Source: Escherichia coli (GTDB lineage: Bacteria; Pseudomonadota; Gammaproteobacteria; Enterobacterales; Enterobacteriaceae). From it: a stretch of 64,000 bases of DNA. Shown here in pieces: positions 7,411 through 42,465 of the stretch; positions within the stretch are counted from its first letter, which is position 1, and every line of letters starts with the position of its first letter. Location: the NCBI RefSeq assembly GCF_024298765.1, contig NZ_CP101210.1; one strand, written 5' to 3'. A program made the position numbers and the translations under genes. The notes under the pieces are model-generated. The model had not been told where the DNA came from and did no database searches. It saw nothing but the letters and a program-made list of their open reading frames with translations.

Positions 7411-7524
7411 TGCGAGCAGCATTCCGGCATTTAAAGGTGAACATCGCAGGGAGAATTAACAGGTATAGAATGGAGTTGGGTGCTTGAGGCTGTCTGGCGT
7501 TAAGCATTCGCGAGGTTCCAGATG

Positions 7525-7582
7525 GACAAAAGCCCCAGGCGATATTTCTATCAACCTGAGGCCAGCGTTCGAACCTAAGCAA
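7525..7582 (-). ncRNA. Sok-like antisense RNA of a hok/sok-type locus (predicted)
   Basis: On the minus strand: candidate -35 TTGCCT (plus 7611-7616) and -10 TAACAT (plus 7588-7593) with 17-bp spacing, then a ~57-nt transcript ending in hairpin GCCUCAGG...CCUGGGGC plus CUUUUGU. Size matches the Sok antisense RNA family; boundaries inferred. Confidence 0.4.
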
Positions 7583-7619
7583 TTCGAATGTTAGTCTCTT
7601 CTTTGCAGGGAGGCAAGAC

Positions 7620-7772
7620 ATGCTGACAAAATATGCCCTTGTGGCAATCATCGTACTGTGTTGTACAGTACTGGGATTCACGCTGATGGTAGGCGACTCG
7701 TTGTGTGAGTTGAGTATCAGAGAACGTGGTATGGAGTTTAAGGCAGTTCTCGCTTACGAATCGAAGAAGTAG
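7620..7772 (+). CDS. Hok/Gef family small membrane toxin (type I toxin)
   Basis: 50-aa ORF below the track length cutoff, read by hand: [50 protein letters not shown]. Hydrophobic N-terminal helix plus the conserved DSLCEL...AYES pattern of Hok family toxins; RBS GGGAGG upstream. Confidence 0.7.
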
Positions 7773-10667: not shown

Positions 10668-10764
10668 GATGCCTGCGACAGGGCTCTCTGAATAGTTGAT
10701 ACACAGAAAAAGATGGAAGGATGGACAACCGGCCAGGGATGGTCTTTTTTACGAGAGGATGCGT

Positions 10765-12327
10765 ATGAACTCGTTTTCACTTCTGACAACCCCGTGGTTG
10801 CCCGTTCGTTTTAAAGACGGAACAACAGGCAAACTGGCGCCAGTCCATCTGGCGGATGAAAATGTTGTCGATATAGCTGCGCCGCGGGCAGATCTCCAGG
10901 GGGCGGCATGGCAGTTTTTGCTGGGGCTACTACAAACCAGCTTCGCGCCAAAAGATCATCGTCGTTGGGATGATATCTGGGAAGACGGACTGGAAGCTGA
11001 AAAGCTACGGGAGGCATTGCTGCCATTAGAGCACGCTTTCCAGTTTGGGCCAGATTCCCCTTCATTTATGCAGGATTTTGAGGCGCTCACGGGAGATAAA
11101 GTTCCGGTCGCTTCGCTACTGCCTGAGATTCCCGGCGTTCAAACAACAAAGTTTAATAAAGACCACTTTATCAAGCGTGGTGTAACGGAACACCTGTGCC
11201 CACAGTGTTCTGCACTAGCCTTGTTCTCTCTACAGTTAAATGCGCCGTCAGGCGGCAAAGGCTATCGCACCGGCTTACGCGGCGGTGGGCCGATGACTAC
11301 TCTGATTGAATTACAGGAATATCAGGGCAATCAACAAACTCCCTTGTGGCGCAAAATGTGGCTCAACGTGATGCCGCAGGATGAAGCCGACTTACCGCTA
11401 CCCAAAAAATTTGACGGTCTGGTTTTCCCCTGGCTTGGCCCGACGCGCACCAGCGAACTGGCCGGTGCGGTGGTAACCGATGATCAGGTTAATAAACTCC
11501 AGGCGTACTGGGGAATGCCGCGGCGTATTCGTATTGATTTTAATACCACGACAGTCGGCAACTGCGATATTTGCGGCGAGCAGAACGACGCGCTCCTGAG
11601 CCTGATGACGACCAAAAATTACGGTGCGAATTATGCCATGTGGCAGCATCCTTTAACGCCTTACCGTATACCACTTAAAGAGGGTGGCGAGTTTTACTCG
11701 GTCAAACCACAACCGGGCGGTTTAATCTGGCGCGACTGGTTAGGCCTTATCGAAACGGGTAAGTCAGAAAACAATACGGAACTTCCTGCACTGGTGGTGA
11801 AACTCTTTAATGCCAGCAGTCTGAAACAGGCAAAAGTGGGCCTATGGGGATTTGGTTATGATTTTGACAACATGAAAGCGCGCTGTTGGTACGAACACCA
11901 TTTCCCGCTACTGCTCAATAAAAAAGAAGGCCAGATACCGAAGCTGCGGCTGGCTGCGCAAACGGCTTCACGGATTCTGAGTCTGTTACGGAGTGCATTG
12001 AAAGAAGCATGGTTCTCCGATCCAAAAGGTGTAAGGGGTGATTTCAGTTTTGTGGATATCGACTTCTGGAACAAAACTCAGCATCGCTTCCTGAGGTTAG
12101 TGCGCCAAATTGAAGAAGGTCAGGATGCGGATGAATTACTCGGCAAATGGCAAAAGGAAATTTGGTTATTCGCGCGTCAGGATTTTGACGAGCGTGTATT
12201 CACTAATCCTTATGAGCCCGTTGATTTGAAACGCGTCATGACCGCGCGCAAGAAATATTTTACAACATCGGCGGAGAAGCAAAGTGCTAAAGCCGCCAGG
12301 GAGAAAAAGCAGGAGGCTGCTGAATGA
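10765..12327 (+). CDS. casA: Cascade large subunit Cse1/CasA (Cas8e)
   Basis: Track ORF 10696..12327; likely start ATG 10765 (MNSFSLLTTPWLPV) preceded by GAGAGG; position and size match the Cascade large subunit. Confidence 0.8.
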   Translation: MNSFSLLTTPWLPVRFKDGTTGKLAPVHLADENVVDIAAPRADLQGAAWQFLLGLLQTSFAPKDHRRWDDIWEDGLEAEKLREALLPLEHAFQFGPDSPSFMQDFEALTGDKVPVASLLPEIPGVQTTKFNKDHFIKRGVTEHLCPQCSALALFSLQLNAPSGGKGYRTGLRGGGPMTTLIELQEYQGNQQTPLWRKMWLNVMPQDEADLPLPKKFDGLVFPWLGPTRTSELAGAVVTDDQVNKLQAYWGMPRRIRIDFNTTTVGNCDICGEQNDALLSLMTTKNYGANYAMWQHPLTPYRIPLKEGGEFYSVKPQPGGLIWRDWLGLIETGKSENNTELPALVVKLFNASSLKQAKVGLWGFGYDFDNMKARCWYEHHFPLLLNKKEGQIPKLRLAAQTASRILSLLRSALKEAWFSDPKGVRGDFSFVDIDFWNKTQHRFLRLVRQIEEGQDADELLGKWQKEIWLFARQDFDERVFTNPYEPVDLKRVMTARKKYFTTSAEKQSAKAAREKKQEAAE

Positions 12328-12860
12328 GTATTGTAAAAGAGGAGCACAAAGCCACGCTGCGTAAATGGCACGAAGAGTTGCAGGAAAAACGCGGCAATCG
12401 TGCCAGTCTGCGGCGTAGCACAACGGTTAATGATGTTTGTCTGTCAGAAGGGTTTCGTTCTCTGCTGATGCAGACCCACACGTTGTGGAAAATTGAATCA
12501 CAGGAGTGGCGTTTTACCGCACTGGCGCTGGTTGCCGCCGTTGCCGCCAATGTAAAAGCCATTGATGAACGGCAGCCTTTTGCCGCGCAGTTGGCGGCGG
12601 TAATGTCTGAGGGGCGTTTTACTCGCCTGTCGGCAGTCAAAACGCCGGATGAATTACTGCGCCAGTTACGTCGCGCGGTCAAATTATTAAATGGTTCCGT
12701 CAATCTTATCTCTTTGGCAGACGATATTTTCCGCTGGTGCCAGGAGAGCGACGATCTGCTCAATCATCACCGCCGCCAGCAGCGGCCAACAGAATTTATC
12801 CGTATCCGCTGGGCGCTGGAATATTACCAGGCTGGCGACGCCGATAACGAACAAAATTAA
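12324..12860 (+). CDS. casB: Cascade small subunit Cse2/CasB (Cas11)
   Basis: 178-aa ORF; start overlaps the cse1 stop (ATGA); AGGAGG RBS; position in operon. Confidence 0.8.
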   Translation: MSIVKEEHKATLRKWHEELQEKRGNRASLRRSTTVNDVCLSEGFRSLLMQTHTLWKIESQEWRFTALALVAAVAANVKAIDERQPFAAQLAAVMSEGRFTRLSAVKTPDELLRQLRRAVKLLNGSVNLISLADDIFRWCQESDDLLNHHRRQQRPTEFIRIRWALEYYQAGDADNEQN

Positions 12861-12874
12861 TAAAGGACTATCTC

Positions 12875-13930
12875 ATGACGACATTTATTCAGCTTCATTT
12901 GTTAACCGCTTACCCTGCTGCCAACCTTAACCGTGATGACACCGGTGCGCCAAAAACTGTGGTACTGGGTGGAGCAACGCGTCTGCGCGTTTCCTCACAA
13001 AGTCTGAAACGTGCGTGGCGCACTTCTGCACTTTTTGAACAGGCACTGGCGGGCCATATTGGTATTCGCAGTGGGCGTATTGCGCGTGAGGCGGCAACTA
13101 TCCTGATTGAGAAAGGCATCGAAGAGAAAAAAGCCATCGAATGGGCGGCAAAAATTGCGGATTATCTTGGGAAAGCTAAAAACGACAAAAAACCAAAAGA
13201 TCCGCTCACTAACGCCGAAACTGAACAGCTAGTCCATATCAGCCCGGCAGAATTTGACGCCGTAAAAGCGCTGGCCCATCAACTGGCCGAAGAAAAGCGC
13301 GCGCCAAAAGAGGAAGATCTCGCTTTGTTACGTAAAGATCGCATGGCGGTAGATATCGCTATGTTTGGTCGTATGCTGGCGAATAAACCCGAATTTAATG
13401 TTGAAGCCGCCTGCCAGGTCGCGCATGCATTTGGTGTCAGTGAAACGATTGTCGAAGATGATTTTTTCACCGCCGTTGATGATTTGCGCCAGGCTTCTGA
13501 AGATGCCGGTGCCGGGCATCTTGGTGAAACCGGATTCGGTTCTGCGCTGTTCTACACCTATATCTGCATCGATAAAGATCTGCTGGTCGAAAACCTCGGC
13601 GGTGACGAAGCGTTAGCTAATCAGACCTTGCGCGCCTTTACGGAAGCCGCACTTAAAGTCTCCCCAACCGGCAAACAGAACAGCTTTGCCAGCCGTGCCT
13701 ACGCCTCCTGGGCGCTGGCAGAAAAAGGCACTGAACAACCACGCTCTCTGGCGGCGGCTTTCTATGAACCCATTAATGGCACCCTCCAGTTAGATGTGGC
13801 GGTGCAGCGTATTACAACGCTTCGCGAAAATATGAATACGGTCTATGAACAGAAGACCGAATGTGCAAGCTTTGACGTGATGAACAAACAGGGAAGCATG
13901 AAGGACGTGCTGGACTTTATCTGCGCGTAA
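12875..13930 (+). CDS. casC: Cascade backbone subunit Cas7e/CasC
   Basis: 351-aa ORF; N-terminus MTTFIQLHLLTAYPAANLNRDDTGAPKT recognised as the CasC family. Confidence 0.9.
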   Translation: MTTFIQLHLLTAYPAANLNRDDTGAPKTVVLGGATRLRVSSQSLKRAWRTSALFEQALAGHIGIRSGRIAREAATILIEKGIEEKKAIEWAAKIADYLGKAKNDKKPKDPLTNAETEQLVHISPAEFDAVKALAHQLAEEKRAPKEEDLALLRKDRMAVDIAMFGRMLANKPEFNVEAACQVAHAFGVSETIVEDDFFTAVDDLRQASEDAGAGHLGETGFGSALFYTYICIDKDLLVENLGGDEALANQTLRAFTEAALKVSPTGKQNSFASRAYASWALAEKGTEQPRSLAAAFYEPINGTLQLDVAVQRITTLRENMNTVYEQKTECASFDVMNKQGSMKDVLDFICA

Positions 13931-13940
13931 GGGGCGGCTA

Positions 13941-14687
13941 ATGAGCCAATATTTGATTTTTCAGCTTCATGGGCCAATGGCATCCTGGGGCGTCGATGCC
14001 CCTGGCGAAGTGCGTCATACCCATGAACTGCCTTCGCGCTCAGCATTGCTGGGGCTGCTGGCTGCCGGGGTAGGGATTCGGCGTGATGATACCGAACGAT
14101 TAAACGCGTTTAACCGCCACTATTCACTGGTGGTTTGCGCCAGCCGTAACCCGCGCTGGGCACGGGATTATCACACGGTCCAGATGCCAAAAGAGGTGCG
14201 TAAAGCGCGTTATTTCAGCCGTCGCGAAGAGTTGAGCGCCCCTGATCTTCTGAGCGCGATTATCTCCCGGCGCGACTACTACACCGATGCCTGGTGGATG
14301 GTGGCGGTGGCAACAACCCCCGATGCGCCTTACAGCCTTGAACAGTTGCAGGACGGTTTACGTCATCCGGTTTTTCCGCTTTATCTGGGGCGAAAAAGTC
14401 ATCCGCTGGCGTTACCACTTGCGCCGTTACTGCTCGAAGGCAACGCGTCTGATGTCTTACGTAACGCATACCAACAGTATCAGGATAGTTTCCGCGAACT
14501 GAAAGTCTCACTCCCGAAACTTCAGGATGAATGCTGGTGGGAAGGGGAACACGACGGCCTGGTCGCGAGCAAAATATTACGTCGCCGGGATGTTCCTTTA
14601 AATCGTCAGCAGTGGCTGTTTGGGGAACGCACCATCAATCAGGGGCCGTGGCTCAGCAAGGAGGAACCATGTACCTCTCAAGAATAA
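13941..14687 (+). CDS. casD: Cascade subunit Cas5e/CasD
   Basis: 248-aa ORF; N-terminus MSQYLIFQLHGPMASWG recognised as the Cas5e family. Confidence 0.85.
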   Translation: MSQYLIFQLHGPMASWGVDAPGEVRHTHELPSRSALLGLLAAGVGIRRDDTERLNAFNRHYSLVVCASRNPRWARDYHTVQMPKEVRKARYFSRREELSAPDLLSAIISRRDYYTDAWWMVAVATTPDAPYSLEQLQDGLRHPVFPLYLGRKSHPLALPLAPLLLEGNASDVLRNAYQQYQDSFRELKVSLPKLQDECWWEGEHDGLVASKILRRRDVPLNRQQWLFGERTINQGPWLSKEEPCTSQE

Positions 14688-15315
14688 CCTTACATACCGG
14701 CCAGCTTTCCCCAGCGCAGTTGCTGCATCTGGTGGATCGCGGTGAATATGTAATGCATCAGTGGCTGTGGGATCTTTTTCCTGGCGGCAAAGAAAGGCAA
14801 TTTCTTTATCGTCGGGAAGAACTCCAGGGGGCGTTTCGCTTTTTTGTCCTGTCGCAGGAACGCCCGGCGGAAAGTGATATTTTCACCATCGAATGCCGAC
14901 CATTTGCGCCAGAGTTGCGTACCGGACAATCCCTTTGTTTCAACCTGCGGGCGAATCCAACAATTTGTAAAGCGGGCAAACGCCACGACTTGCTGATGGA
15001 GGCGAAACGGCAGGTGAGGGGGCAGGTGGAAGGAAGTGATGTCTGGTTGCATCAACAACAGGCTGCGCTGGACTGGCTGGCAGCGCAGGGGGAGAGAAGC
15101 GGTTTTACACTGCTGGATACTTCGGTTGATGCCTACCGACAACAGCAACTGCGGCGGGAAAACTCCCGGCAACTGATCCAGTTCAGTAGCGTGGATTATA
15201 CGGGGATGCTTACGGTCACCGATCCTGGGTTATTTCTGCAACGTCTCAGTCAGGGGTATGGCAAAAGCCGGGCGTTCGGTTGTGGTCTGATGCTGATCAA
15301 ACCCGGAGCAGAGGC

Positions 15316-15319
<4 letters not shown>
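14669..15319 (+). CDS. casE: CRISPR RNA endoribonuclease Cas6e/CasE
   Basis: Track ORF 14531..15319; likely start ATG 14669 (MYLSRITL) with AAGGAGG RBS; glycine-rich C-terminal GCGLM loop typical of Cas6e. Confidence 0.85.
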
Positions 15320-16529
<1,210 letters not shown>

Positions 16530-16625
16530 GTTATCCGTTCTTTAAAAATAAGGAAATGTTTTAATTTAGTTGGTAGATTGTTGATGCGGAATAAATTTGT
16601 TTAAAAACAGTTATGTATGCTTAGT
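16530..16625 (+). promoter_or_regulatory. CRISPR leader (AT-rich, array promoter and integration site)
   Basis: About 96-bp AT-rich segment between the cas2 stop and the first repeat. Confidence 0.6.
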
Positions 16626-17935
16626 GTGTTCCCCGCGCCAGCGGGGATAAACCGCATTGAAAACATTGCCTTTATTTTATTTTTTGGTGTTCCCCGCGCC
16701 AGCGGGGATAAACCGGTGCCGCCGCTGGGCACTTCCTTCCCGTGAGTGTGTTCCCCGCGCCAGCGGGGATAAACCGCCCTGATAGCGTCCAGTTGAATGC
16801 GCGCCCGCGTGTTCCCCGCGCCAGCGGGGATAAACCGGCAGGCACGGGCAATATCAGACTCGGTCAAAGGTGTTCCCCGCGCCAGCGGGGATAAACCGCT
16901 CGGTTGTTTTCATATTACCGGCCTGCCACTGTGTTCCCCGCGCCAGCGGGGATAAACCGACAATATCCCGGACCGGGCGCTGATTTAGTCAGTGTTCCCC
17001 GCGCCAGCGGGGATAAACCGCGGACGGTGGGAATATAGAAAATCCGTCCACCGTGTTCCCCGCGCCAGCGGGGATAAACCGTTATACTCTTTTCATCGAC
17101 TAAGGAGGGGAGGGTGTTCCCCGCGCCAGCGGGGATAAACCGCAATAACGCAGCATCCAGGAAGCTGTTTCCGCGTGTTCCCCGCGCCAGCGGGGATAAA
17201 CCGCGATCGGTGAAGAGGTCCGCGAAATACTCACTGTGTTCCCCGCGCCAGCGGGGATAAACCGGCGATAGTTGATTCAGCCGCGCCAGCGAATGTGTGT
17301 TCCCCGCGCCAGCGGGGATAAACCGGGGCCGCCGCGAATTTACACACGATTCAATACGTGTTCCCCGCGCCAGCGGGGATAAACCGAACTGGTGCGCGAC
17401 GGCTGGCTAACAAAACGAGTGTTCCCCGCGCCAGCGGGGATAAACCGCGTGGCTGCGCTGGCCGTTGCAGCAGTTTGATGTGTTCCCCGCGCCAGCGGGG
17501 ATAAACCGCGTAAACGCCCCGTCGCCATTAATTTCGGGGTGTGTTCCCCGCGCCAGCGGGGATAAACCGTGGGATGAGCAAATAACGTCGTTTCCTAGAA
17601 AGTGTTCCCCGCGCCAGCGGGGATAAACCGCCGCCGTGCCAGTGATCCTCATACGGCCTGTTGTGTTCCCCGCGCCAGCGGGGATAAACCGAAATTAAGA
17701 ACGGCGTAAACGACGGCAGCATGGTGTTCCCCGCGCCAGCGGGGATAAACCGGTGATGATTCAGAGCAGACATTAGCCCGCGCTGTGTTCCCCGCGCCAG
17801 CGGGGATAAACCGGGTAAAAACACGGTCTGAACCGACATTCATGTGTGTTCCCCGCGTCAGCGGGGATAAACCGGACGCACTGGATGCGATGATGGATAT
17901 CACTTAGAATTCCCCGCCCCTGCGGTAGAACTCCC
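16626..17935 (+). CRISPR. Type I-E CRISPR array: 21 repeats of GTGTTCCCCGCGCCAGCGGGGATAAACCG plus a degenerate terminal repeat, 21 spacers of 32 nt
   Basis: Repeats counted by hand at 16626, 16687, 16748 ... 17846 with an exact 61-bp period. Repeat 21 (17846-17874) carries one substitution (GCGTCAGCG); the terminal repeat 17907-17935 (GAATTCCCCGCCCCTGCGGTAGAACTCCC) matches about 18/29. Confidence 0.97.
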
Positions 17936-25319: not shown

Positions 25320-26681
<1,362 letters not shown>

Positions 26682-26820
26682 AACGTGAGGAAATACCTGG
26701 ATTTTTCCTGGTTATTTTGCCGCAGGTCAGCGTATCGTGAACATCTTTTCCAGTGTTCAGTATGGTGCCTTGCACGGTAATTATGTCACTGGTTATTAAC
26801 CAATTTTTCCTGGGGGATAA

Positions 26821-27960
26821 ATGAGCGCGGGAAGCCCAAAATTCACCGTTCGCCGCATTGCGGCTTTGTCACTGGTTTCGCTATGGCTGGCAGGCTGTTC
26901 TGACACTTCAAATCCACCGGCACCGGTCAGCTCCGTTAATGGCAATGCGCCTGCAAATACCAATTCTGGTATGTTGATTACGCCGCCGCCGAAAATGGGG
27001 ACGACGTCTACAGCGCAGCAACCGCAAATTCAGCCGGTACAGCAGCCACAAATTCAGGCTACTCAACAACCGCAAATCCAGCCAGTACAGCCAGTAGCTC
27101 AGCAGCCGGTACAGATGGAAAACGGACGCATCGTCTACAACCGTCAGTATGGGAACATTCCGAAAGGCAGTTATAGCGGCAGTACCTATACCGTGAAAAA
27201 AGGCGACACACTTTTCTATATCGCCTGGATTACTGGCAACGATTTCCGTGACCTTGCTCAGCGCAACAATATTCAGGCACCATATGCGCTGAACGTCGGT
27301 CAGACCTTACAGGTGGGTAATGCTTCCGGTACGCCAATCACTGGCGGAAATGCCATTACCCAGGCCGACGCAGCAGAGCAAGGAGTTGTGATCAAGCCTG
27401 CACAAAATTCCACCGTTGCTGTTGCGTCGCAACCGACAATTACGTATTCTGAGTCTTCGGGTGAACAGAGTGCTAACAAAATGTTGCCGAACAACAAGCC
27501 AACTGCGACCACGGTCACAGCGCCTGTAACGGTACCAACAGCAAGCACAACCGAGCCGACTGTCAGCAGTACATCAACCAGTACGCCTATCTCCACCTGG
27601 CGCTGGCCGACTGAGGGCAAAGTGATCGAAACCTTTGGCGCTTCTGAGGGGGGCAACAAGGGGATTGATATCGCAGGCAGCAAAGGACAGGCAATTATCG
27701 CGACCGCAGATGGCCGCGTTGTTTATGCCGGTAACGCGCTGCGCGGCTACGGTAATCTGATTATCATCAAACATAATGATGATTACCTGAGTGCCTACGC
27801 CCATAACGACACAATGCTGGTCCGGGAACAACAAGAAGTGAAGGCGGGGCAAAAAATAGCAACCATGGGTAGCACCGGAACCAGTTCAACACGCTTGCAT
27901 TTTGAAATTCGTTACAAGGGGAAATCCGTAAACCCGCTGCGTTATTTGCCGCAGCGATAA
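26821..27960 (+). CDS. nlpD: murein hydrolase activator lipoprotein NlpD (LysM + M23 domain)
   Basis: 379-aa ORF with lipoprotein signal (LAGCS), Q/P-rich repeat linker and LysM/M23 regions; the rpoS promoter is known to lie within this gene in E. coli. Confidence 0.9.
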
Positions 27961-28022
27961 ATCGGCGGAACCAGGCTTTTGCTTGAATGTTCCGTCAAGG
28001 GATCACGGGTAGGAGCCACCTT

Positions 28023-29015
28023 ATGAGTCAGAATACGCTGAAAGTTCATGATTTAAATGAAGATGCGGAATTTGATGAGAACGGAGTTGAGGTTTTTGAC
28101 GAAAAGGCCTTAGTAGAAGAGGAACCCAGTGATAACGATTTGGCCGAAGAGGAACTGTTATCGCAGGGAGCCACACAGCGTGTGCTGGACGCGACTCAGC
28201 TTTACCTTGGTGAGATTGGTTATTCACCACTGTTAACGGCCGAAGAAGAAGTTTATTTTGCGCGTCGCGCACTGCGTGGAGATGTCGCCTCTCGCCGCCG
28301 GATGATCGAGAGTAACTTGCGTCTGGTGGTAAAAATTGCCCGCCGTTATGGCAATCGTGGTCTGGCGTTGCTGGACCTGATCGAAGAGGGCAACCTGGGG
28401 CTGATCCGCGCGGTAGAGAAGTTTGACCCGGAACGTGGTTTCCGCTTCTCAACATACGCAACCTGGTGGATTCGCCAGACGATCGAACGGGCGATTATGA
28501 ACCAAACCCGTACTATTCGTTTGCCGATTCACATCGTAAAGGAGCTGAACGTTTACCTGCGAACCGCACGCGAGTTGTCCCATAAACTGGACCACGAACC
28601 AAGTGCGGAAGAGATCGCAGAGCAACTGGATAAGCCAGTTGATGACGTCAGCCGTATGCTTCGTCTTAACGAGCGCATTACCTCGGTAGACACCCCGCTG
28701 GGTGGTGATTCCGAAAAAGCGTTGCTGGACATCCTGGCCGATGAAAAAGAGAACGGTCCGGAAGATACCACGCAAGATGACGATATGAAGCAGAGCATCG
28801 TCAAATGGCTGTTCGAGCTGAACGCCAAACAGCGTGAAGTACTGGCACGTCGATTCGGTTTGCTGGGGTACGAAGCGGCAACACTGGAAGATGTAGGTCG
28901 TGAAATTGGCCTCACCCGTGAACGTGTTCGCCAGATTCAGGTTGAAGGCCTGCGCCGTTTGCGCGAAATCCTGCAAACGCAGGGGCTGAATATCGAAGCG
29001 CTGTTCCGCGAATAA
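28023..29015 (+). CDS. rpoS: RNA polymerase sigma factor RpoS (sigma-38)
   Basis: Track ORF 27987..29015; 330-aa protein from [21 protein letters not shown] recognised as RpoS; codon 33 is GAG (Glu). Confidence 0.95.
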
Positions 29016-29030
29016 GTAAGCATCTGTCAG

Positions 29031-29066
29031 AAAGGCCAGTCTCTTATGAGGCTGGCCTTTTTCTTT
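29031..29066 (+). terminator. Rho-independent terminator after rpoS
   Basis: 13-bp stem AAAGGCCAGTCTC / GAGGCTGGCCTTT with TTAT loop, followed by a T-run. Confidence 0.7.
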
Positions 29067-29092
29067 TGTATGGGGAGTTGGTATGTTTCGTC

Positions 29093-29125
29093 GCCTGGAT
29101 AAGACACGTCAGCGTCCCATCCGGC
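29093..29125. repeat. REP-like palindrome
   Basis: GCCTGGATAAGACACGTCAGCGTCCCATCCGGC, a REP-type imperfect palindrome between rpoS and hosA. Confidence 0.5.
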
Positions 29126-29135
29126 AATCAACATC

Positions 29136-29543
29136 CTATTTGCTCATCATCTTGCGCACCAGCTGCATAAACAGCTCCTGCTCTTCTCCACTCAAACGCC
29201 CCAAAAATTCCTCATCCACACTGTCACCTATCGGTATCGCCGCAGCAAGTATCTTTTCGCCTTCGGCAGTCAGCCAGACAAAGCGTCGCCGCTTGTCAGC
29301 GGCGTCATGTTCACGTCTGACTAAGCCACGATTTTCCATTCTTGCCAACATTTCTGCCAGCGTTGCTTTGGTGCTGACTGCTGCTTCTATCAGTGCCACC
29401 TGTTCGATACCAGGCTTATCAGCAATGGCGCGCATCACCGCGTACTGTGGTTTGGTCAGGTCAGGTAACTCGTGCTGCCAGCGAGCTGTATGCTGCTGAA
29501 AAAGCTGTCGTAACTGATGGAACGCTTTATTTCGTAACGCCAT
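29136..29543 (-). CDS. hosA: MarR/SlyA-family transcriptional regulator HosA
   Basis: Track ORF 29136..29576; likely 135-aa protein from MALRNKAFHQLRQLF; winged-helix MarR-like sequence; recognised as the SlyA homologue found next to rpoS in non-K-12 E. coli. Confidence 0.75.
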   Translation of the reverse strand: MALRNKAFHQLRQLFQQHTARWQHELPDLTKPQYAVMRAIADKPGIEQVALIEAAVSTKATLAEMLARMENRGLVRREHDAADKRRRFVWLTAEGEKILAAAIPIGDSVDEEFLGRLSGEEQELFMQLVRKMMSK

Positions 29544-29658
29544 GTAAACTCCGGGCAAACTATCTGCCGCTATCATAGCGGTTTTTCAGTGACGAAGAAG
29601 ATGTTGTTACTTTTCAGCGCTTGCCGCGATGAAAACAGAGGCGTATTTTAATAATAAC

Positions 29659-29672
29659 GTTCGTATACGAAC
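29659..29672. promoter_or_regulatory. Perfect 14-bp palindrome GTTCGTATACGAAC upstream of ecdB (candidate MarR-type operator)
   Basis: Perfect dyad read from the sequence, 17 bp upstream of the ecdB start, in the hosA/ecdB divergent region. Confidence 0.45.
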
Positions 29673-29689
29673 AATTTAGAGAGTAAGCA

Positions 29690-30283
29690 ATGAAACTGAT
29701 CGTCGGGATGACAGGGGCTACCGGTGCGCCTCTTGGTGTGGCATTACTGCAAGCGCTGCGGGAGATGCCGAATGTCGAGACTCATCTGGTGATGTCGACG
29801 TGGGCGAAAACCACCATTGAACTGGAAACGCCTTACAGCGCCCGCGATGTTGCTGCCCTCGCAGACTTCAGCCATAACCCGGCGGATCAGGCGGCGACCA
29901 TCTCCTCAGGTTCCTTTCGTACCGACGGCATGATCGTTATTCCGTGCAGTATGAAAACGCTCGCCGGTATCCGTGCCGGTTACGCCGATGGCCTGGTGGG
30001 GCGCGCGGCGGACGTCGTGCTCAAAGAAGGCCGCAAACTAGTGCTGGTGCCGCGTGAAATGCCGCTTAGCACCATCCATCTCGAAAATATGCTCGCACTT
30101 TCACGCATGGGCGTGGCGATGGTGCCGCCGATGCCTGCCTTTTATAACCATCCCGAAACGGTAGATGACATTGTCCACCACGTGGTAGCCCGCGTGCTGG
30201 ATCAATTTGGCCTCGAACATCCCCACGCCAGGCGCTGGCAAGGATTGCCGCAGGTCCGGAATTTTTCTCAGGAGAATGAATAA
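29690..30283 (+). CDS. ecdB: UbiX-family flavin prenyltransferase (Pad1-like; partner of a UbiD-type decarboxylase)
   Basis: 197-aa ORF MKLIVGMTGATGAPLG... typical UbiX/Pad1 fold; symbol from memory of E. coli O157-type annotation (also called pad1/kpdB). Confidence 0.8.
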   Translation: MKLIVGMTGATGAPLGVALLQALREMPNVETHLVMSTWAKTTIELETPYSARDVAALADFSHNPADQAATISSGSFRTDGMIVIPCSMKTLAGIRAGYADGLVGRAADVVLKEGRKLVLVPREMPLSTIHLENMLALSRMGVAMVPPMPAFYNHPETVDDIVHHVVARVLDQFGLEHPHARRWQGLPQVRNFSQENE

Positions 30284-31710
30284 TGGCATTTGATGATTTA
30301 CGCAGCTTTTTACAGGCGCTTGATGACCACGGCCAGTTACTGAAAATCAGCGAAGAGGTGAACGCGGAACCGGATCTGGCAGCCGCAGCCAACGCCACCG
30401 GGCGTATCGGCGACGGCGCGCCCGCGCTTTGGTTTGATAATATTCGCGGCTTTATCGATGCCCGCGTGGCAATGAACACCATCGGTTCCTGGCAGAACCA
30501 CGCGATTTCCCTCGGCCTGCCGCCAAACACCCCGGTTAAAAAACAGATTGATGAGTTTATCCGCCGCTGGGATAACTTCCCCATTGCCCCGGAGCGCCGC
30601 GCCAATCCAGCCTGGGCGCAGAACACCGTCGATGGCGACGAGATCAACCTGTTCGATATTCTGCCACTGTTTCGTTTAAACGACGGTGATGGCGGTTTCT
30701 ATCTCGACAAAGCGTGCGTGGTTTCCCGCGATCCGCTTGATCCGGATAACTTCGGCAAGCAGAACGTCGGCATCTACCGTATGGAAGTGAAGGGTAAGCG
30801 TAAGCTCGGTCTGCAACCGGTGCCGATGCACGATATCGCCCTGCATCTGCATAAAGCGGAAGAGCGCGGTGAAGATCTGCCGATTGCAATCACGCTCGGT
30901 AACGATCCGATCATCACCCTGATGGGGGCCACGCCGCTGAAATACGATCAGTCTGAGTATGAAATGGCAGGCGCGCTGCGCGAAAGCCCGTACCCGATCG
31001 CCACCGCCCCGCTGACCGGTTTTGATGTGCCGTGGGGCTCGGAAGTGATCCTCGAAGGGGTCATCGAAAGCCGTAAACGCGAAATCGAAGGGCCGTTCGG
31101 TGAGTTTACCGGGCACTACTCCGGCGGGCGTAATATGACCGTCGTGCGCATTGATAAAGTCTCTTATCGCAGCAAACCCATTTTTGAATCGCTCTATCTC
31201 GGGATGCCGTGGACGGAAATCGACTACCTGATGGGGCCAGCCACCTGCGTGCCGCTGTATCAGCAACTGAAAGCCGAGTTCCCGGAAGTGCAGGCGGTGA
31301 ACGCCATGTACACCCACGGCCTTCTGGCGATTATCTCCACCAAAAAACGCTACGGCGGCTTTGCCCGCGCGGTGGGCCTGCGTGCGATGACCACGCCGCA
31401 CGGTCTGGGCTACGTGAAGATGGTGATTATGGTCGATGAAGACGTTGATCCGTTCAACCTGCCGCAGGTGATGTGGGCGCTCTCCTCGAAAGTGAACCCG
31501 GCAGGGGATTTGGTGCAGTTGCCGAATATGTCCGTGCTGGAACTCGACCCCGGCTCAAGCCCGGCCGGTATCACCGACAAGCTGATTATCGACGCCACCA
31601 CGCCTGTCGCTCCGGACAACCGTGGTCACTACAGCCAGCCGGTGGTGGATTTACCGGAAACCAAAGCCTGGGCTGAAAAACTGACCGCTATGCTGGCCGC
31701 ACGTCAATAA
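30283..31710 (+). CDS. ecdC: UbiD-family (prenyl-FMN dependent) aromatic acid decarboxylase, catalytic subunit
   Basis: 475-aa ORF, start overlapping the ecdB stop; recognised as the UbiD family (yclC-like). Confidence 0.8.
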   Translation: MAFDDLRSFLQALDDHGQLLKISEEVNAEPDLAAAANATGRIGDGAPALWFDNIRGFIDARVAMNTIGSWQNHAISLGLPPNTPVKKQIDEFIRRWDNFPIAPERRANPAWAQNTVDGDEINLFDILPLFRLNDGDGGFYLDKACVVSRDPLDPDNFGKQNVGIYRMEVKGKRKLGLQPVPMHDIALHLHKAEERGEDLPIAITLGNDPIITLMGATPLKYDQSEYEMAGALRESPYPIATAPLTGFDVPWGSEVILEGVIESRKREIEGPFGEFTGHYSGGRNMTVVRIDKVSYRSKPIFESLYLGMPWTEIDYLMGPATCVPLYQQLKAEFPEVQAVNAMYTHGLLAIISTKKRYGGFARAVGLRAMTTPHGLGYVKMVIMVDEDVDPFNLPQVMWALSSKVNPAGDLVQLPNMSVLELDPGSSPAGITDKLIIDATTPVAPDNRGHYSQPVVDLPETKAWAEKLTAMLAARQ

Positions 31711-31720
31711 GGAGAACAAG

Positions 31721-31957
31721 ATGATTTGTCCACGTTGTGCCGATGAACAGATTGAAGTGATGGCGAAATCGCCGGTAAAAGATGTCTGGATGGTCTACCA
31801 GTGCCAGCATTGCCTCTATACCTGGCGCGATACCGAACCGCTACGCCGCACCAGCCGCGAACATTATCCCGAAGCGTTCCGCATGACGCAGAAAGATATT
31901 GATGACGCGCCGATGGTGCCGAGCATCCCGCCGCTGCTGGCGGAAGGTAAGCGCTAA
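31721..31957 (+). CDS. ecdD: small subunit of the phenolic acid decarboxylase (YclD-like, Cys-rich)
   Basis: 78-aa ORF with CxxC...CxxC spacing, directly downstream of the UbiD-like gene. Confidence 0.65.
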   Translation: MICPRCADEQIEVMAKSPVKDVWMVYQCQHCLYTWRDTEPLRRTSREHYPEAFRMTQKDIDDAPMVPSIPPLLAEGKR

Positions 31958-31958
31958 A

Positions 31959-31990
31959 TAAAAGGTCCGATGCCCATCGGACCTTTTATT
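31959..31990. terminator. Bidirectional Rho-independent terminator between convergent ecdD and ygbN
   Basis: Stem AAAGGTCCGATG / CATCGGACCTTT flanked by an A-run on one side and a T-run on the other. Confidence 0.65.
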
Positions 31991-31994
31991 AAGG

Positions 31995-33359
31995 TCAAAT
32001 TACCGCCCATACGCACCAGGTAATTAAGAATCCGGTAAAACCGAGAATGGTCGTTAACACTGTCCAGGTTTTCAGACCGTCTGCTACCGACAACCCCAGA
32101 TATTTGGTCACAATCCAGAACCCTGAGTCATTAATATGTGACGCACCAAGCCCACCAAAGCAGGCTGCCAGCGTCACCAATACGCACTGAATCGGATTCA
32201 ATCCCATCACCGCTTCTGAGAGTAACCCGCCGGTTGTCAGGATTGCTACGGTTGCTGATCCCTGCGATGCACGCAGCGCCAGTGAAATAATAAATGCGGC
32301 TGGTAACAGAGGCAGGTCAATCATTTGTAGCATGTTGGCAAGGGCTTTGCCGACGCCCGATTCCACCAGCACTTTGCCAAATACCCCTCCAGCACCAGTA
32401 ACCAAAATCACTACCGCCGCAGTGGGAAGGGCTGAGCCCATAATGTCGCTGGTGTGTTGTAAGCTCCAGCCGCGACGTAAAGCCAATAACCAGAATGCCA
32501 GCACCAGCGCAATCATTAGAGCTACCATTGGTGAGCCGATCAGCTGTAGCGTACCAAGCAGGGGATGCGAAGGCGGCATCAGTGTTGCGGAAACCGTACC
32601 CGCCATGATAATCGCGATAGGAATAACAATTAGCGAGGTGACCAGCGCGACGCCCGGTGGATTTATTTTATCGCTTAATTTTGTCGCGCCTTCCTCACTG
32701 GCCGGAGCCAGTTGCATCTGTTCCAGTACCTCGACCGACATCGCATATTGGCGCTTATTGATTATTTTCGCTGCAAAGTAGCCAACAATCCCTACGGGAA
32801 TAGAAATCGCAATACCGATGATGGTTAGCCAGCCGATGTCTGCGTGGAGTAACCCCGCTGCGGCGACAGGGCCTGGATGCGGCGGTACCGCCACGTGAAC
32901 AGTGAGCATGATCCCAGCGACAGGCAGGCCAAATTTGAGTGGTGATATTTTGGCAACCTTGGCAAAACCGTAAATGATTGGCGCAAGAATAATAAAGCCG
33001 ACATCAAAGAAGACGGGAATACCGAGGAAGAACGCTGCCAGAGTCAGCGCAGCGATAGTTCGTTTGTCGCCTAACTTGCGACTGAAATAATTAGCCAGTG
33101 ACTCTGCACCACCAGAGTGTTCGATCATACGCCCCAGCATAGCGCCCAGACCAATAATAATAGTGACGGAACCAAGCACACCGCCCATCCCGGCGATCAT
33201 CACTTTACCCACTTCGCCCGCCGGTATACCCGCCGCAAGTGCGACTAACAGGCTGACGAGGAGCAGAGCAACGAATGGTTGTACCTTTGCCTTGATGACC
33301 AGCAGCAACAGCATGATTACGCCAGCTAACGCAATGCATAACAATGTAATTGTGGACAT
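31995..33359 (-). CDS. ygbN: GntP-family permease YgbN
   Basis: 454-aa polytopic membrane ORF recognised as YgbN. Confidence 0.85.
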   Translation of the reverse strand: MSTITLLCIALAGVIMLLLLVIKAKVQPFVALLLVSLLVALAAGIPAGEVGKVMIAGMGGVLGSVTIIIGLGAMLGRMIEHSGGAESLANYFSRKLGDKRTIAALTLAAFFLGIPVFFDVGFIILAPIIYGFAKVAKISPLKFGLPVAGIMLTVHVAVPPHPGPVAAAGLLHADIGWLTIIGIAISIPVGIVGYFAAKIINKRQYAMSVEVLEQMQLAPASEEGATKLSDKINPPGVALVTSLIVIPIAIIMAGTVSATLMPPSHPLLGTLQLIGSPMVALMIALVLAFWLLALRRGWSLQHTSDIMGSALPTAAVVILVTGAGGVFGKVLVESGVGKALANMLQMIDLPLLPAAFIISLALRASQGSATVAILTTGGLLSEAVMGLNPIQCVLVTLAACFGGLGASHINDSGFWIVTKYLGLSVADGLKTWTVLTTILGFTGFLITWCVWAVI

Positions 33360-33447
33360 GGGAAACCCTGTCTGAAAGTTATAGTTAACCTACCCCATCC
33401 GTAGATGGGGGGATGTATGGGTACGTTGTAATTAGGGATTGAGCGAA

Positions 33448-34224
33448 TTAGCGCCAGGCGTCAAACCAGCCAAGCCCTTCTTCGGTGAGGCCACGAGGTT
33501 TGTATTCACAACCGATCCAGCCCTGATATCCCACTTCATCGAACAGGCGGAACAGCCACGGATAGTTGATTTCTCCATCGTCCGGTTCATGTCGATCAGG
33601 TAGTCCGGCAATTTGTACGTGCGCATATTTCCCGGCGTAGTCGCGGATTAAATGCGTCAGGTTGCCATCTACTTTTTGCGCATGGAAAGTATCTAGTTGA
33701 ATAAAAACGTTATCTCGCGCAACCTCTTCAACAATAGCCAGTGCCTGATACTGGCTGGAGAAGAGATAATGAGGCTTAACGCCGGGGCTGAGTGCTTCAA
33801 CCAATATTCGCTTGCCGTGTGGCGCAAAGTGGTCGGCAGCGTAGCGGAGATTATCAATAAATACTGCCCGGTACCGTTCAGCATCTTCGCCAGCGGGCAC
33901 GACGCCTGCCATCACATGGACTTGTTCACAATTGAGCGCCAATGCATATTCCAGTGCCAGGTCGATGTCTGCACGTGCTTCGTGCTCACGTCCGGGAAGG
34001 GCGGATAATCCCCATTCTCCCGCATTAATATCTCCGGGAGCGGTATTGAACAGCGCCAGCGTCAGGTGGTTTTGCGCCAGTTGCTGCTGGATTTGCTGGG
34101 GGGAGTAGTCATAGGGAAACAGAAACTCCACAGCATCGAACCCGGCTTTTCGCGCTGCGGCGAAGCGTTCAATAAAAGGCACTTCGGTGAACATCATGGA
34201 TAAATTAGCTGCAAAACGAGGCAT
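33448..34224 (-). CDS. ygbM: hydroxypyruvate isomerase-like / 2-oxo-tetronate isomerase YgbM
   Basis: 258-aa ORF, TIM-barrel sugar isomerase-like; conserved position in the ygbJKLMN cluster. Confidence 0.8.
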
Positions 34225-34228
34225 TGCA

Positions 34229-34867
34229 TTAACTCCTTAATTCCGCAATTTCACCTGCGGTCAGATAACGGATCGGGCGGTCACCGAGAATAAAAATCAG
34301 CTTTGCCGTTTCCTCCAGCTCTTCCATATTGTTGGCGGCTTCTTGCAGGCTTTCACCACAAACCACTGGGCCATGATTTGCCAGTAAAAAAGCCTGATTG
34401 TCTGCTGCCAGTTCCGCCAGATCCTGTGCGATGCGTTTATCGCCCGGTCGGTAATAAGGCACCAGCGGGATATTTCCCATCCGCATCACCACGTATGGTG
34501 TGAACGGACGAATAACGTTGCTGCTGTCCAGCCCTTGCAGGCAGGAAAGCGCCGTCGACCATGTGCTGTGCAAATGCACCACCGCTTTACAGCGCGGATT
34601 GTTGCGATACAGCGCCAGATGAAAGAGCACCTCTTTCGAGGGTTTGTCACCACTTAACCATTCGCCATCCGCGGCGACTTTGGAAAGCCGCTGCGGATCG
34701 AGATTGCCCAGGCATGAACCTGTCGGTGTCGCCAGTAAATTCCCGTCAGGTAAAAGCAGCGACAGATTGCCAGCCGAACCGGTTGCATAGCCGCGCTGAA
34801 AGAATGAACTGGCAATCCGCGTCATCTCCTCTCGCAAAGACTGCTCTACTTTTGCGAAATCGCTCAT
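34229..34867 (-). CDS. ygbL: class II aldolase/adducin family protein YgbL
   Basis: 212-aa ORF; synteny. Confidence 0.8.
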
Positions 34868-36126
34868 GATAAAAACTCTCTTTGGGCTCGTGAAAAAAAG
34901 GCTTCATCACCGAAGTTGCCAGATTTAAGGGCGAGTGAGACAGGCTTATCCAGTGCGTTTACCCACGGCACGCCGGGGGAAATGGTTGGGCCAATATGAA
35001 ACCCTTTTATTCCCAGGCTCTGTGTGACTACGCCGGAGGTCTCACCGCCTGCGACAATAAAGCGTGTCACGCCTTCCGCTGCTAACCGCGCCGCTAGTTG
35101 AGAAAACAGTGTTTCTACTGCCTGACTGGCTTTTTGTGCACCGTATTGCTGTTGAATTGCTGCCAATGCGTCAGTGCTGGCGGTGGCAAAAACCAGTGGA
35201 GCAAGTACACTTTCCTGGCCCAGAACCCACTCTGCCAGCTCGTGTGCATAAGCGGCCAGAGTTTCGGTTGAGAGGCAGCGTGCCACATCAACCTCACGGG
35301 CTGGTGCAATTTGACGGTAATGTGCCACCTGGCGGTTGGTCATTTGAGAGCATGAACCGGAGAGCACTACGCCGCGCCCAGCGAGCGGACGCCCTGCTTC
35401 GCGAGCCTGGTTACCGTTTTCTTGCGCCCACTGCCGGGCCAGGCCAATCGCCAGACCAGAACCGCCCGTTACCAGTGGGGCATCGCGCAAGGCTTCCCCC
35501 TGAATTTCCAGATGGTGTTCGGTCAGCGCATCAAGCACCGCGTAGCGATAGCCCTCTTGCTGTAAGCGAGCCAGCTCCTGACGAACGGCATCCACACCTT
35601 GTTCGAAAACATGTGCCGAAACGACGCCGCAGCGCCCTGTGGACTGCGCTTCAACCAGACGGGGAAGATAGCTGTCGGTCATGGGATTTACCGGGTGATG
35701 GCGCATTCCGGATTCGGCCAGCAGTTGATTCATTACGAACAAATACCCCTGATAAACCGTACGTCCGTTGACCGGCAGGGCCGGAGAGAAGACCGTAAAC
35801 GGCGTGTCGAGAGCATCCATTAATGCATCGGTAACCGGGCCGATATTACCTTTCGCAGTACTGTCGAAAGTAGAGCAGTATTTGAAATAGATCTGTTTGC
35901 AACCTTGCTGTTGCAACCAGCTCAGAGCCGCCAGCGATTGCTGTGTGGCTTCAACCACCGGACAGGAACGCGTTTTCAGGCTGATCACCAGTGCGTCGAT
36001 TGCTTCCGGCATTTTACCTGTTGGAACACCGTTAATTTGTACCGTTGGTAGACCGTTTTCCACCAGAAAACTGGCGATATCCGTCGCGCCGGTAAAATCA
36101 TCGGCGATAACGCCAATCTTGATCAT
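34864..36126 (-). CDS. ygbK: four-carbon acid sugar kinase family protein YgbK
   Basis: 420-aa ORF, N-terminus MIKIGVIADDFTGATD typical of the DUF1537 kinase family; synteny. Confidence 0.8.
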   Translation of the reverse strand: MIKIGVIADDFTGATDIASFLVENGLPTVQINGVPTGKMPEAIDALVISLKTRSCPVVEATQQSLAALSWLQQQGCKQIYFKYCSTFDSTAKGNIGPVTDALMDALDTPFTVFSPALPVNGRTVYQGYLFVMNQLLAESGMRHHPVNPMTDSYLPRLVEAQSTGRCGVVSAHVFEQGVDAVRQELARLQQEGYRYAVLDALTEHHLEIQGEALRDAPLVTGGSGLAIGLARQWAQENGNQAREAGRPLAGRGVVLSGSCSQMTNRQVAHYRQIAPAREVDVARCLSTETLAAYAHELAEWVLGQESVLAPLVFATASTDALAAIQQQYGAQKASQAVETLFSQLAARLAAEGVTRFIVAGGETSGVVTQSLGIKGFHIGPTISPGVPWVNALDKPVSLALKSGNFGDEAFFSRAQREFLS

Positions 36127-41368: not shown

Positions 41369-41612
41369 GGGGTTATGTCCGGTTCCCTGATATTAAATGG
41401 GGTGTGATGGTTTTTATTTTCGTTGTAATCACATAAGGCGCACATGATACCGGAGTTAATCATTTCAGGGGAAGAAGCGAACGGCGAGTTCTTGATGGTG
41501 ATTCCGGGAAAGATGCTGTTTTGCAGCTTTTGCGTGATGACGATGAAACAAGATCGCAAAATTCGTCGGTTGAAGAAACCTCCTCCTTCAGAGACATAGT
41601 CCCCTTTAAAAT

Positions 41613-41635
41613 TAAGTTGTAATATAAATGCACCT
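41613..41635. promoter_or_regulatory. Candidate NsrR-type operator upstream of ygbA
   Basis: Half-sites AAGTTGTAATA / AAATGCACCTT separated by 1 nt; the second half (reverse complement AAGGTGCATTT) matches 10/11 of the NsrR half-site consensus as I recall it. ygbA is a known NsrR target in E. coli. Confidence 0.35.
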
Positions 41636-42036: not shown

Positions 42037-42465
42037 TTACGCTTTGGTGGCAATCAGGATGGCTGATGCTTTGATCAATGCAATAACGCGCGAGCCAGTG
42101 GTGAGTTTCATTTCATCCTGACTTTCATTTGTTACCACTGCCACAATTTCAAAACCCGCATCCGTTTTGATATGGACAGTGGCGTTCACTGCGCCTTCGG
42201 TGATTGTCGACACGCTGCCAGCAAACTGGTTGCGAGCAGAGAATTTCAGTCCACAGTCTTCCGTTGCCAGCGTGACCCACGGGGCTTTAATCAGGGCAAT
42301 CGCTTCTTTCCCTTTCGCCAGACCCAGCGCTTGCTGGCTGCTGTGAGTCACAATTGCCACCAGCTTTGCACCACCTGCCAGCGTCAGTTCTACTTCGTCA
42401 TTCACCGCGCCCATTGCTACTGCGCTAACTGTTCCGGTTAATTGATTTCTTGCTGAAACTGCCAT
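42037..42465 (-). CDS. tandem TOBE-domain molybdate/molybdenum-pterin-binding (Mop-like) protein
   Basis: Track ORF 42037..42504; likely start at 42465 (MAVSARNQLTG) after AAAGGAGG. Two repeats of the SARNQ...G.V...ALIKA TOBE/Mop pattern. Confidence 0.65.
   Translation of the reverse strand: MAVSARNQLTGTVSAVAMGAVNDEVELTLAGGAKLVAIVTHSSQQALGLAKGKEAIALIKAPWVTLATEDCGLKFSARNQFAGSVSTITEGAVNATVHIKTDAGFEIVAVVTNESQDEMKLTTGSRVIALIKASAILIATKA

Follow-up and report, generated by a model that had tools for sequence, protein, structure and literature searches.

Herbelin et al. 2000 and LeClerc et al. 1999 reportedly described a 2.9-kb slyA(hosA)-pad1-yclC segment in the mutS-rpoS region of Escherichia coli. 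In PMC5491219, the 2.9-kb hosA-pad1-yclC segment is placed downstream of rpoS, and in PMC4209514 the same arrangement is "pattern IV" of the o454-nlpD region. Two groups of enzymes offer the closest comparisons for what such a segment encodes. First, the VdcBCD, ShdBCD and BsdBCD decarboxylases of Sedimentibacter hydroxybenzoicus, Bacillus subtilis and Streptomyces (PDB 7AE4; PMC8379154) have the same B/C/D three-subunit architecture and gene order, and homologues of this type reversibly decarboxylate 4-hydroxybenzoate or vanillate (PMC8379154). Second, UbiX and UbiD of ubiquinone biosynthesis belong to the same superfamilies and perform the same chemistry, a prFMN synthase paired with a prFMN-dependent decarboxylase.

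We analyzed a 64,000-nt stretch of E. coli DNA, hereafter the window, which matches many sequenced strains at 100% identity. One of these, E. coli strain 104 (NZ_CP029164), supplied the RefSeq annotation that we combined with open reading frames to establish the layout. At ~29064..31957 the window contains the chromosomal hosA-ecdBCD module, for which slyA-pad1-yclC and kpdRBCD are alternative names. As originally predicted, a MarR/SlyA-type regulator gene, hosA, is divergent from ecdB-ecdC-ecdD, which encode UbiX-like, UbiD-like and small subunits, and the whole set lies between the rpoS terminator and ygbN. The ecdD gene starts 10 nt past the ecdC stop. The prediction that the module occurs together with a complete ygbI-ygbN cluster is borne out by the annotation of the identical genome: ygbN is followed in order by ygbM, ygbL, otnK (ygbK), ltnD (ygbJ), ygbI, pphB and mutS, all intact. 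The published slyA-pad1-yclC segment of the EPEC E2348/69 type has the same genes, order, orientation and size, and likewise sits right after the rpoS terminator with the ygbI-ygbN cluster. Apart from allele divergence, nothing of substance is different in the window. The arrangement is ordinary and already known, with published descriptions going back to about 2000.

Table 1. Features of the rpoS-ygbN interval, in window coordinates.
Feature	Position	Strand	Basis or identity
rpoS	28023..29015	+	ORFs and RefSeq annotation of NZ_CP029164
rpoS intrinsic terminator, hairpin and T-run	29029..29062	+	terminator scan; fold -25.6 kcal/mol, z = -4.1
REP-like imperfect palindrome	~29092..29125	-	fold and alignment to REPs
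hosA/MarR	29136..29543	-	ORFs and RefSeq annotation of NZ_CP029164
putative ecdBCD sigma-70 promoter, TTGCCG / 17 nt spacer / TATTTT	29620..29648	+	putative, read from sequence
HosA operator, perfect 14-bp palindrome GTTCGTATACGAAC	29659..29672	.	match to published probe
ecdB (pad1/kpdB/vdcB)	29690..30283	+	UbiX-family flavin prenyltransferase
ecdC (yclC/kpdC/vdcC)	30283..31710	+	UbiD-family prFMN-dependent hydroxyarylic acid decarboxylase
ecdD (kpdD/vdcD)	31721..31957	+	78-aa zinc-ribbon subunit
bidirectional terminator shared by ecdD and ygbN	31957..31991	.	inverted repeat 19 nt, 95% complementary
ygbN	31995..33359	-	ORFs and RefSeq annotation of NZ_CP029164

Alignment to reference genomes located the edges of the segment at base level. 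K-12 MG1655 lacks the module, with only 93 nt between rpoS and ygbN, and its breakpoints correspond to ~29063/29064, just past the rpoS terminator, and 31957/31958, at the left edge of the bidirectional terminator. These breakpoints enclose 2894 bp. O157:H7 carries the module and lacks ygbI-N. We considered and rejected the O157 arrangement as a plain deletion of the long form: its 40-nt ecdD-pphB spacer has no counterpart in the window, so the junction sequence is different.

A census of 5426 complete E. coli genomes places the window within the known variation of the species. Four arrangements account for 5398 of the 5426 genomes (99.5%): the long form found in the window (1601, all sharing the ecdD-ygbN junction), an O157-like form (807), a K-12-like form (1950), and a B2-like form in which a flavodoxin and MBL-hydrolase cassette stands in place of the module (1040). 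These four are the published mutS-rpoS / o454-nlpD patterns I-IV. The window is pattern IV as defined in PMC4209514, with the segment abutting the rpoS terminator and ecdD contiguous with ygbN (o454). The expectations that the rpoS-mutS interval is polymorphic among E. coli and that K-12 lacks the module both held, and the module was not found at this position in K-12-like genomes. Overall, ~44% of E. coli genomes carry hosA-ecdBCD. The particular allele in the window is less common, reaching at least 99% identity in only 71 of the 5426 genomes, and it is 3-5% diverged from the alleles of O157 and of the common B1 type.

The decarboxylase genes belong to the three-subunit family. We assigned them using the NCBIfam VdcB/VdcC/VdcD profiles with curated cut-offs, together with PDB matches. 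EcdB scored 311.4 bits on VdcB (NF041206; cut-off 290) and matched O157 Pad1/EcdB over its full length (PDB 1SBZ, E = 3.9e-128). EcdC scored 788.5 bits on VdcC (NF041204; cut-off 650) and matched PDB 7AE4_A (E = 1e-159). EcdD scored 119.8 bits on VdcD (NF041205; cut-off 30) and matched ShdD (PDB 7AE4_a, E = 5e-11). The Glu-Arg-Glu (ERE) catalytic triad characteristic of the VdcBCD/ShdBCD/BsdBCD systems is conserved in EcdC, with R166 in the sequence NVGIYR and E269 and E274 in EGPFGEF; the two glutamates align with E273 and E278 of ShVdcC (PMC8379154). EcdD likewise has the four-cysteine zinc ribbon of subunit D, its two CXXC knuckles (Cys3, Cys6, Cys28, Cys31) occupying the same positions as in ShVdcD (PMC8379154). 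By analogy with these systems, EcdD is taken to be the obligate partner of subunit C. What sets the present module apart from VdcBCD/ShdBCD/BsdBCD is its occurrence in an enterobacterium with a divergent MarR-type repressor, HosA, and a defined operator.

These assignments suggest a mechanism. EcdB, as a UbiX-type enzyme, would prenylate reduced FMN to prFMN, which the UbiD-type EcdC would bind in complex with the zinc-ribbon subunit EcdD. EcdCD could then turn 4-hydroxybenzoate, vanillate and similar hydroxyarylic acids into phenols by reversible, non-oxidative decarboxylation, an activity that we take from the literature. Homologues and published work likewise supply the likely substrates of the E. 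coli enzyme.

EcdB and EcdC fall in the UbiX and UbiD superfamilies, and any UbiD enzyme could in principle be served by a UbiX-type prFMN synthase. Both points would fit a role as redundant UbiX/UbiD paralogues for ubiquinone biosynthesis, and not as enzymes that catabolize or detoxify free hydroxyarylic acids. We regard this role as extremely improbable. On the model for the UbiD equivalog, EcdC reached 173 bits (cut-off 788), well short of its VdcC score, and it has an extra, VdcD-type zinc-ribbon partner that UbiD lacks. Control by a 4-hydroxybenzoate (4-HBA)-responsive repressor (PMC6261655) also speaks against the idea. Moreover, unlike the core UbiX/UbiD enzymes, EcdBCD is accessory: the module is dispensable, missing from ~56% of genomes, and putatively acts on soluble, non-prenylated acids.

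The regulator and its binding site also have published counterparts. The hosA product is a 135-aa protein that RefSeq annotates as MarR-family, and its residues 1-134 match PDB 8AGA, "Transcriptional regulator HosA" (E = 2.9e-83). For the UMN026 protein, 4-HBA was shown to bind HosA and free it from DNA (PMC6261655). Between the likely ecdB promoter and the ecdB coding sequence lies the palindrome GTTCGTATACGAAC, 17 nt ahead of the start codon, and its flanks match the HosA binding-site probe published in the PMC6261655 supplement. The palindrome occurs once in the whole window and is unchanged in four aligned strains. The putative promoter was read directly from the sequence, and a consensus promoter scan made no call there. 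A bioRxiv preprint (10.1101/2024.04.24.590444) summarizes how the operon is derepressed and describes an operator that lies downstream of where transcription starts. HosA bound to GTTCGTATACGAAC, immediately past the ecdB promoter, would block transcription; 4-hydroxybenzoate would bind HosA, displace it from DNA and so induce the operon. On the strength of the ligand response and DNA binding reported in the literature, HosA of this allele is by analogy a 4-hydroxybenzoate-sensing repressor.

Hairpins mark both ends of the segment. On the rpoS side, alignment with K-12, O157 and B2 indicates that the rpoS terminator is common to all E. coli arrangements. On the ygbN side, the bidirectional terminator that had been predicted was recovered as a 15-bp stem flanked by an A-run and a T-run, one at each side. 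Its folding is about equal for either strand (-20.4 and -19.9 kcal/mol; z ~ -6.6), and the hairpin is kept in K-12. A REP-like palindrome had been proposed as the boundary on the rpoS side. Such a hairpin does lie next to hosA, ~10 nt downstream of its stop codon, but it falls inside the segment that varies relative to K-12, not outside it as a boundary marker. Its folding is stronger on the minus, hosA-sense strand (-26.7 kcal/mol, z = -5.2) than on the plus strand (-15.2 kcal/mol), and the element is probably the 3' stem-loop of the hosA transcript, with a presumed role in hosA mRNA 3' end formation or stability. It aligns to canonical REPs in the window at 56473 and 63777, and its counterparts in sister alleles are nearer the REP consensus than the window's copy. 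The element is missing in K-12, present in all module-bearing strains examined, and present in the B2 cassette at 32/38 identity. A hidden RNA element in the intergenic regions was also considered and rejected, since Rfam returned only sub-threshold chance matches there, on the rpoS terminator.

Over 29136..31957, GC content and codon usage deviate only mildly from the flanks. The module's GC content is 0.557, whereas the window averages 0.532 (sd 0.02); the GC3 of ecdBCD is 0.63-0.69, compared with 0.51-0.56 in flanking genes. Among E. coli strains, the module is 95-98% identical, compared with ~99% for rpoS, nlpD and ygbN. The higher GC3 of ecdBCD or the higher within-species divergence could reflect imported alleles instead of purely vertical descent.

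How did strains come to differ at this site? The rpoS-mutS interval houses the module in Salmonella, K. pneumoniae and K. aerogenes too. Nucleotide identity between the E. coli module and those of Salmonella and Klebsiella is 71-88%, and that of the flanking core genes is 75-93%. We found no annotated integrase, transposase or IS element and no direct repeats at the boundaries, and no RNA gene, tRNA included, was detected in or beside the segment by means other than a dedicated tRNA scan. Because outgroups hold the module in the same interval at core-like divergence, and mobility genes and repeats are absent, we conclude that the segment is ancestral and infer that the K-12 state arose by deletion, not insertion. 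We consider it very probable that hosA-ecdBCD, including the proposed decarboxylase and 4-HBA-repressor mechanism, is an ancestral enterobacterial set of the rpoS-mutS interval that survives in ~44% of E. coli and was deleted in the K-12 lineage. The interval has not been static, however: the Salmonella module has the opposite orientation with respect to rpoS, which implies at least one rearrangement. Herbelin et al. 2000 reportedly concluded that the long form is ancestral.

The opposite history, in which this lineage gained a horizontally acquired islet by insertion at the rpoS-ygbN junction and K-12 retains the ancestral empty site, would draw on the presence/absence variation among strains, the raised GC3 of ecdBCD and the within-species divergence above that of the flanks. 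The bioRxiv preprint (10.1101/2024.04.24.590444) argues further that hosA was "horizontally acquired" from Shigella. However, Shigella is phylogenetically E. coli, so an identity of 97.6% to S. dysenteriae does not point to transfer. Nor is overall GC an outlier, with 13% of equal-sized windows as GC-rich as the module. No target-site duplication was found, and among the 5426 genomes of the census the module was on no E. coli plasmid. Published phylogenetic work, as cited in PMC4209514 and PMC5491219, has the long form as ancestral. Together with the shared interval and core-like divergence in Salmonella and two Klebsiella species, these points make insertion very unlikely.

Two related candidates were set aside. 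A foreign island was rejected on the mild rise in GC and GC3, the lack of mobility genes, target duplications and RNA genes, and the interval shared with outgroups. Apparent plasmid copies, which came from tblastn "plasmid" matches in E. coli and K. pneumoniae, proved to be mislabelled chromosomes of 4.8-5.4 Mb. The "plasmid" matches in Salmonella and K. aerogenes were large chromosome pieces, and we used these chromosomal records as outgroup chromosomes.

The B2-type cassette raises a further alternative. It consists of flavodoxin and MBL-fold hydrolase genes and occupies the same slot, from the rpoS terminator to ygbN. Culham & Wood 2000 is reportedly the source for this "pattern III" cassette. 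Its gene content is unrelated to hosA-ecdBCD and it never co-occurs with the module (1040 genomes), yet the two share the REP-like block, which in the B2-type cassette ends at the first gene's stop codon. Because this block is common to two unrelated cassettes, and because module alleles differ by 3-5% where the flanks differ by ~1%, the slot after the rpoS terminator might be a cassette-exchange site, with recombination anchored on the REP-like and terminator sequences trading whole cassettes and alleles in place of simple lineage-specific deletions. We judge such exchange unlikely and favor an ancestral module that the K-12 lineage has lost by deletion.

The segment is a textbook case of the mosaic E. 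coli mutS-rpoS region and matters little beyond bookkeeping. It already has uses as a typing marker, through HosA as a 4-HBA biosensor, and through EcdB/EcdD as helper genes in muconate engineering. Our analysis adds a current census of the four arrangements and their breakpoints at base level. It also checks directly whether the module is ancestral to this interval in Enterobacteriaceae; the outcome, that it is, contradicts the preprint's claim that hosA came horizontally from Shigella.

The hosA-ecdBCD module between the rpoS terminator and ygbN is real, intact and, as judged from its sequence, functional-looking. Upstream of it, surE, pcm, nlpD and rpoS all lie on the plus strand in the ORF list for 26000..36000. 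A megablast search of 5426 complete E. coli genomes matched the entire segment at 100% in strain 104 (chicken, China). The RefSeq annotation of that genome identifies the four genes as a MarR-family regulator and subunits B, C and D of a non-oxidative hydroxyarylic acid decarboxylase, flanked by rpoS and, at the other end, by ygbN, ygbM, ygbL, otnK, ltnD, ygbI, pphB and mutS. Compared with other strains, none of the four ORFs is truncated. The original prediction was right in both its gene content and its interpretation.

Features of the module, its boundaries and the rest of the window
Feature	Coordinates	Strand	Basis or remark
sok antitoxin RNA	7478..7635		Rfam RF01794, 111.7 bits
Type I-E CRISPR-Cas locus	~8010..17874		from cas3 onward, adjoining iap
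24-nt tandem repeat in nlpD	27019..27083		QPQIQP-type proline/glutamine-rich linker
rpoS terminator	29029..29062		hairpin with 15-bp stem, then T-run; terminator scan and folding
REP-like imperfect palindrome	29092..29125		3' of hosA stop codon; folding and alignment
MarR-like ORF (hosA), 135/146 aa	29136..29543 with accepted start	minus	ORF list; next ORF after rpoS
13-bp palindrome CGCTAT-C-ATAGCG and T-run	29566..29582		hosA 5' leader, just upstream of accepted hosA start
Plausible ecdB promoter, TTGCCG-17-TATTTT	29620..29648		read from sequence
Perfect palindrome GTTCGTATACGAAC	29659..29672		hosA–ecdB intergenic region
ecdB, 197 aa	29690..30283	plus	ORF list
ecdC, 475 aa	30283..31710	plus	ORF list
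ecdD, 78 aa	31721..31957	plus	ORF list
Near-perfect hairpin between A-run and T-run	31957..31991		equal folding on both strands
ygbN	31995..33359	minus	ORF list; remaining ygb cluster beyond
otnK (ygbK), 420 aa	34864..36126		overlaps ygbL
Short ORF	41444..41622		annotated frameshifted
TOBE-domain (molybdenum-pterin-binding-like) gene	42037..42465		between ygbA and fhlA in matching genome

EcdB, EcdC and EcdD exceed the NCBIfam cut-offs for VdcB (311 bits vs 290), VdcC (788 vs 650) and VdcD (120 vs 30), and the ubiquinone UbiD equivalog model falls far under threshold (173 vs 788 bits). EcdB is practically the same protein as the crystallised O157 Pad1 (PDB 1SBZ, E = 4e-128), while EcdC and EcdD match chains A (E = 1e-159) and a (E = 5e-11) of the Sedimentibacter VdcCD/ShdCD structure 7AE4. 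EcdC keeps R166 (NVGIYR) and E269 and E274 (EGPFGEF); the two glutamates align with E273 and E278 of ShVdcC, the latter its catalytic glutamate (PMC8379154). EcdD cysteines 3, 6, 28 and 31 occupy the positions of the ShVdcD zinc ligands.

The regulator is HosA (PDB 8AGA, E = 3e-83). The palindrome GTTCGTATACGAAC occurs once in the window, and its surroundings match the UMN026-derived probe published for HosA binding (PMC6261655 supplement), from which 4-hydroxybenzoate releases HosA (Kd ~4.7 µM; PMC6261655). It is invariant in all four strains aligned, with the spacer around it down to 87% identity in one. The putative promoter, absent from the calls of a consensus scan, would place this operator at ~+4 to +18; earlier work, according to a preprint, puts the HosA site downstream of the transcription start and has 4-HBA derepressing the operon (bioRxiv 10.1101/2024.04.24.590444). 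Separately, the palindrome in the hosA leader is nearly invariant in four strains and bears no sequence relation to the operator. A scan picks it out as terminator-like on the plus strand; it may form a leader hairpin or serve as a second site of regulation.

Both predicted boundary elements held up. The REP-like element has a strong fold on the hosA-sense strand (-26.7 kcal/mol, z = -5.2) and a weak one on the opposite strand. Its label is fair, since it aligns with two canonical REP copies elsewhere in the window and sister strains carry a version nearer the REP consensus. On the ygbN side, the hairpin is the predicted bidirectional terminator for the convergent ecdD and ygbN.

The rpoS-mutS interval is polymorphic, as predicted. 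Junction-spanning queries of the 5426 genomes recovered four arrangements: K-12-like, with rpoS joined directly to ygbN (1950); the long form, with the ecdD–ygbN junction of the window (1601); B2-like, where a flavodoxin gene and an MBL-fold hydrolase gene, unrelated to the module, fill its slot (1040); and O157-like, with an ecdD–pphB junction (807). Together these account for 5398 genomes. The module is present at a coverage of at least 80% in 2380, with no plasmid copies among the E. coli genomes searched. These states correspond to patterns I–IV of the o454–nlpD/mutS–rpoS region, the window being pattern IV (PMC4209514), and in EPEC a "2.9 Kb sequence harboring hosA, pad1 and yclC" downstream of rpoS has been described (PMC5491219, citing Herbelin et al. 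2000).

Comparison with reference genomes confirmed that K-12 MG1655 lacks the module and O157:H7 has it. K-12 has 93 nt from the rpoS stop codon to ygbN and keeps both terminators with 8 nt between them (CTGTGCAC), so its breakpoints fall at ~29063/29064 and 31957/31958 in window coordinates, a difference of 2.9 kb. In O157:H7 the module is 95.7% identical, pphB comes directly after ecdD, and ygbI–ygbN are missing; no counterpart of its ecdD–pphB spacer was found in the window. In a B2-type sequence (L004), ~85 additional bases separate the rpoS terminator from a REP-like block (9144..9181) identical at 32/38 positions to window 29096..29133, ending at the first gene's stop codon in both cassettes. 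Because this block is common to both, the B2 replacement breakpoint lies to its right; the K-12 deletion, unlike the B2 replacement, took out the REP-like element.

Two further features of the window differ from K-12. The TOBE-domain gene, missing at the ygbA-fhlA position in K-12 and O157, corresponds to c3292, another polymorphism already described (PMC4209514). Because otnK is 420 aa in the window and other strains and annotated as 388 aa with a gap before ygbL in K-12 MG1655, the K-12 allele appears C-terminally altered. The RF01794 match marks a chromosomal locus of the hok/sok type that lies between cysJIH and cas3, and the CRISPR array has 29-nt repeats (GTGTTCCCCGCGCCAGCGGGGATAAACCG).

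Is the module ancestral or imported? Composition deviates only mildly: module GC is 0.557 where the window averages 0.532 (sd 0.02), with 13% of equal-sized windows at least as GC-rich, and GC3 of ecdBCD is 0.63–0.69 against 0.51–0.56 in neighbours. No mobility genes, boundary direct repeats or RNA genes were found within the segment or next to it. K. pneumoniae and K. aerogenes have the module between rpoS and mutS, oriented as in E. coli; in Salmonella Senftenberg it adjoins rpoS directly but inverted, with a ygb-like cluster farther out. Three outgroup records labelled plasmids are chromosomes or chromosome pieces. In the Senftenberg record (L007, 7833..11712), module and cluster are each inverted relative to E. 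coli with order kept, and ecdD and rpoS are convergent. In K. pneumoniae, a Hok/Gef gene separates ecdD from mutS.

Nucleotide identity of the four genes to these genera (71–88%) falls in the range of the flanking core genes ispF, truD, surE, pcm, nlpD, rpoS and mutS (75–93%), as vertical inheritance from a common ancestor would predict. The preprint instead derives hosA from Shigella by horizontal transfer (bioRxiv 10.1101/2024.04.24.590444), a claim countered by the outgroup position and core-like divergence. Within E. coli, the module shows 95–98% identity against ~99% for rpoS, nlpD and ygbN, and the window's allele occurs at 99% identity or above in only 71 genomes, many of them avian isolates. 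Herbelin et al. (2000) reportedly regarded the long form as ancestral. The hosA-ecdBCD segment is an already known, thoroughly described and common polymorphism, its components already characterised biochemically and structurally, and its outgroup position and divergence agree with the published view of the long form as the ancestral state, from which the K-12 and O157 forms arose by deletion.
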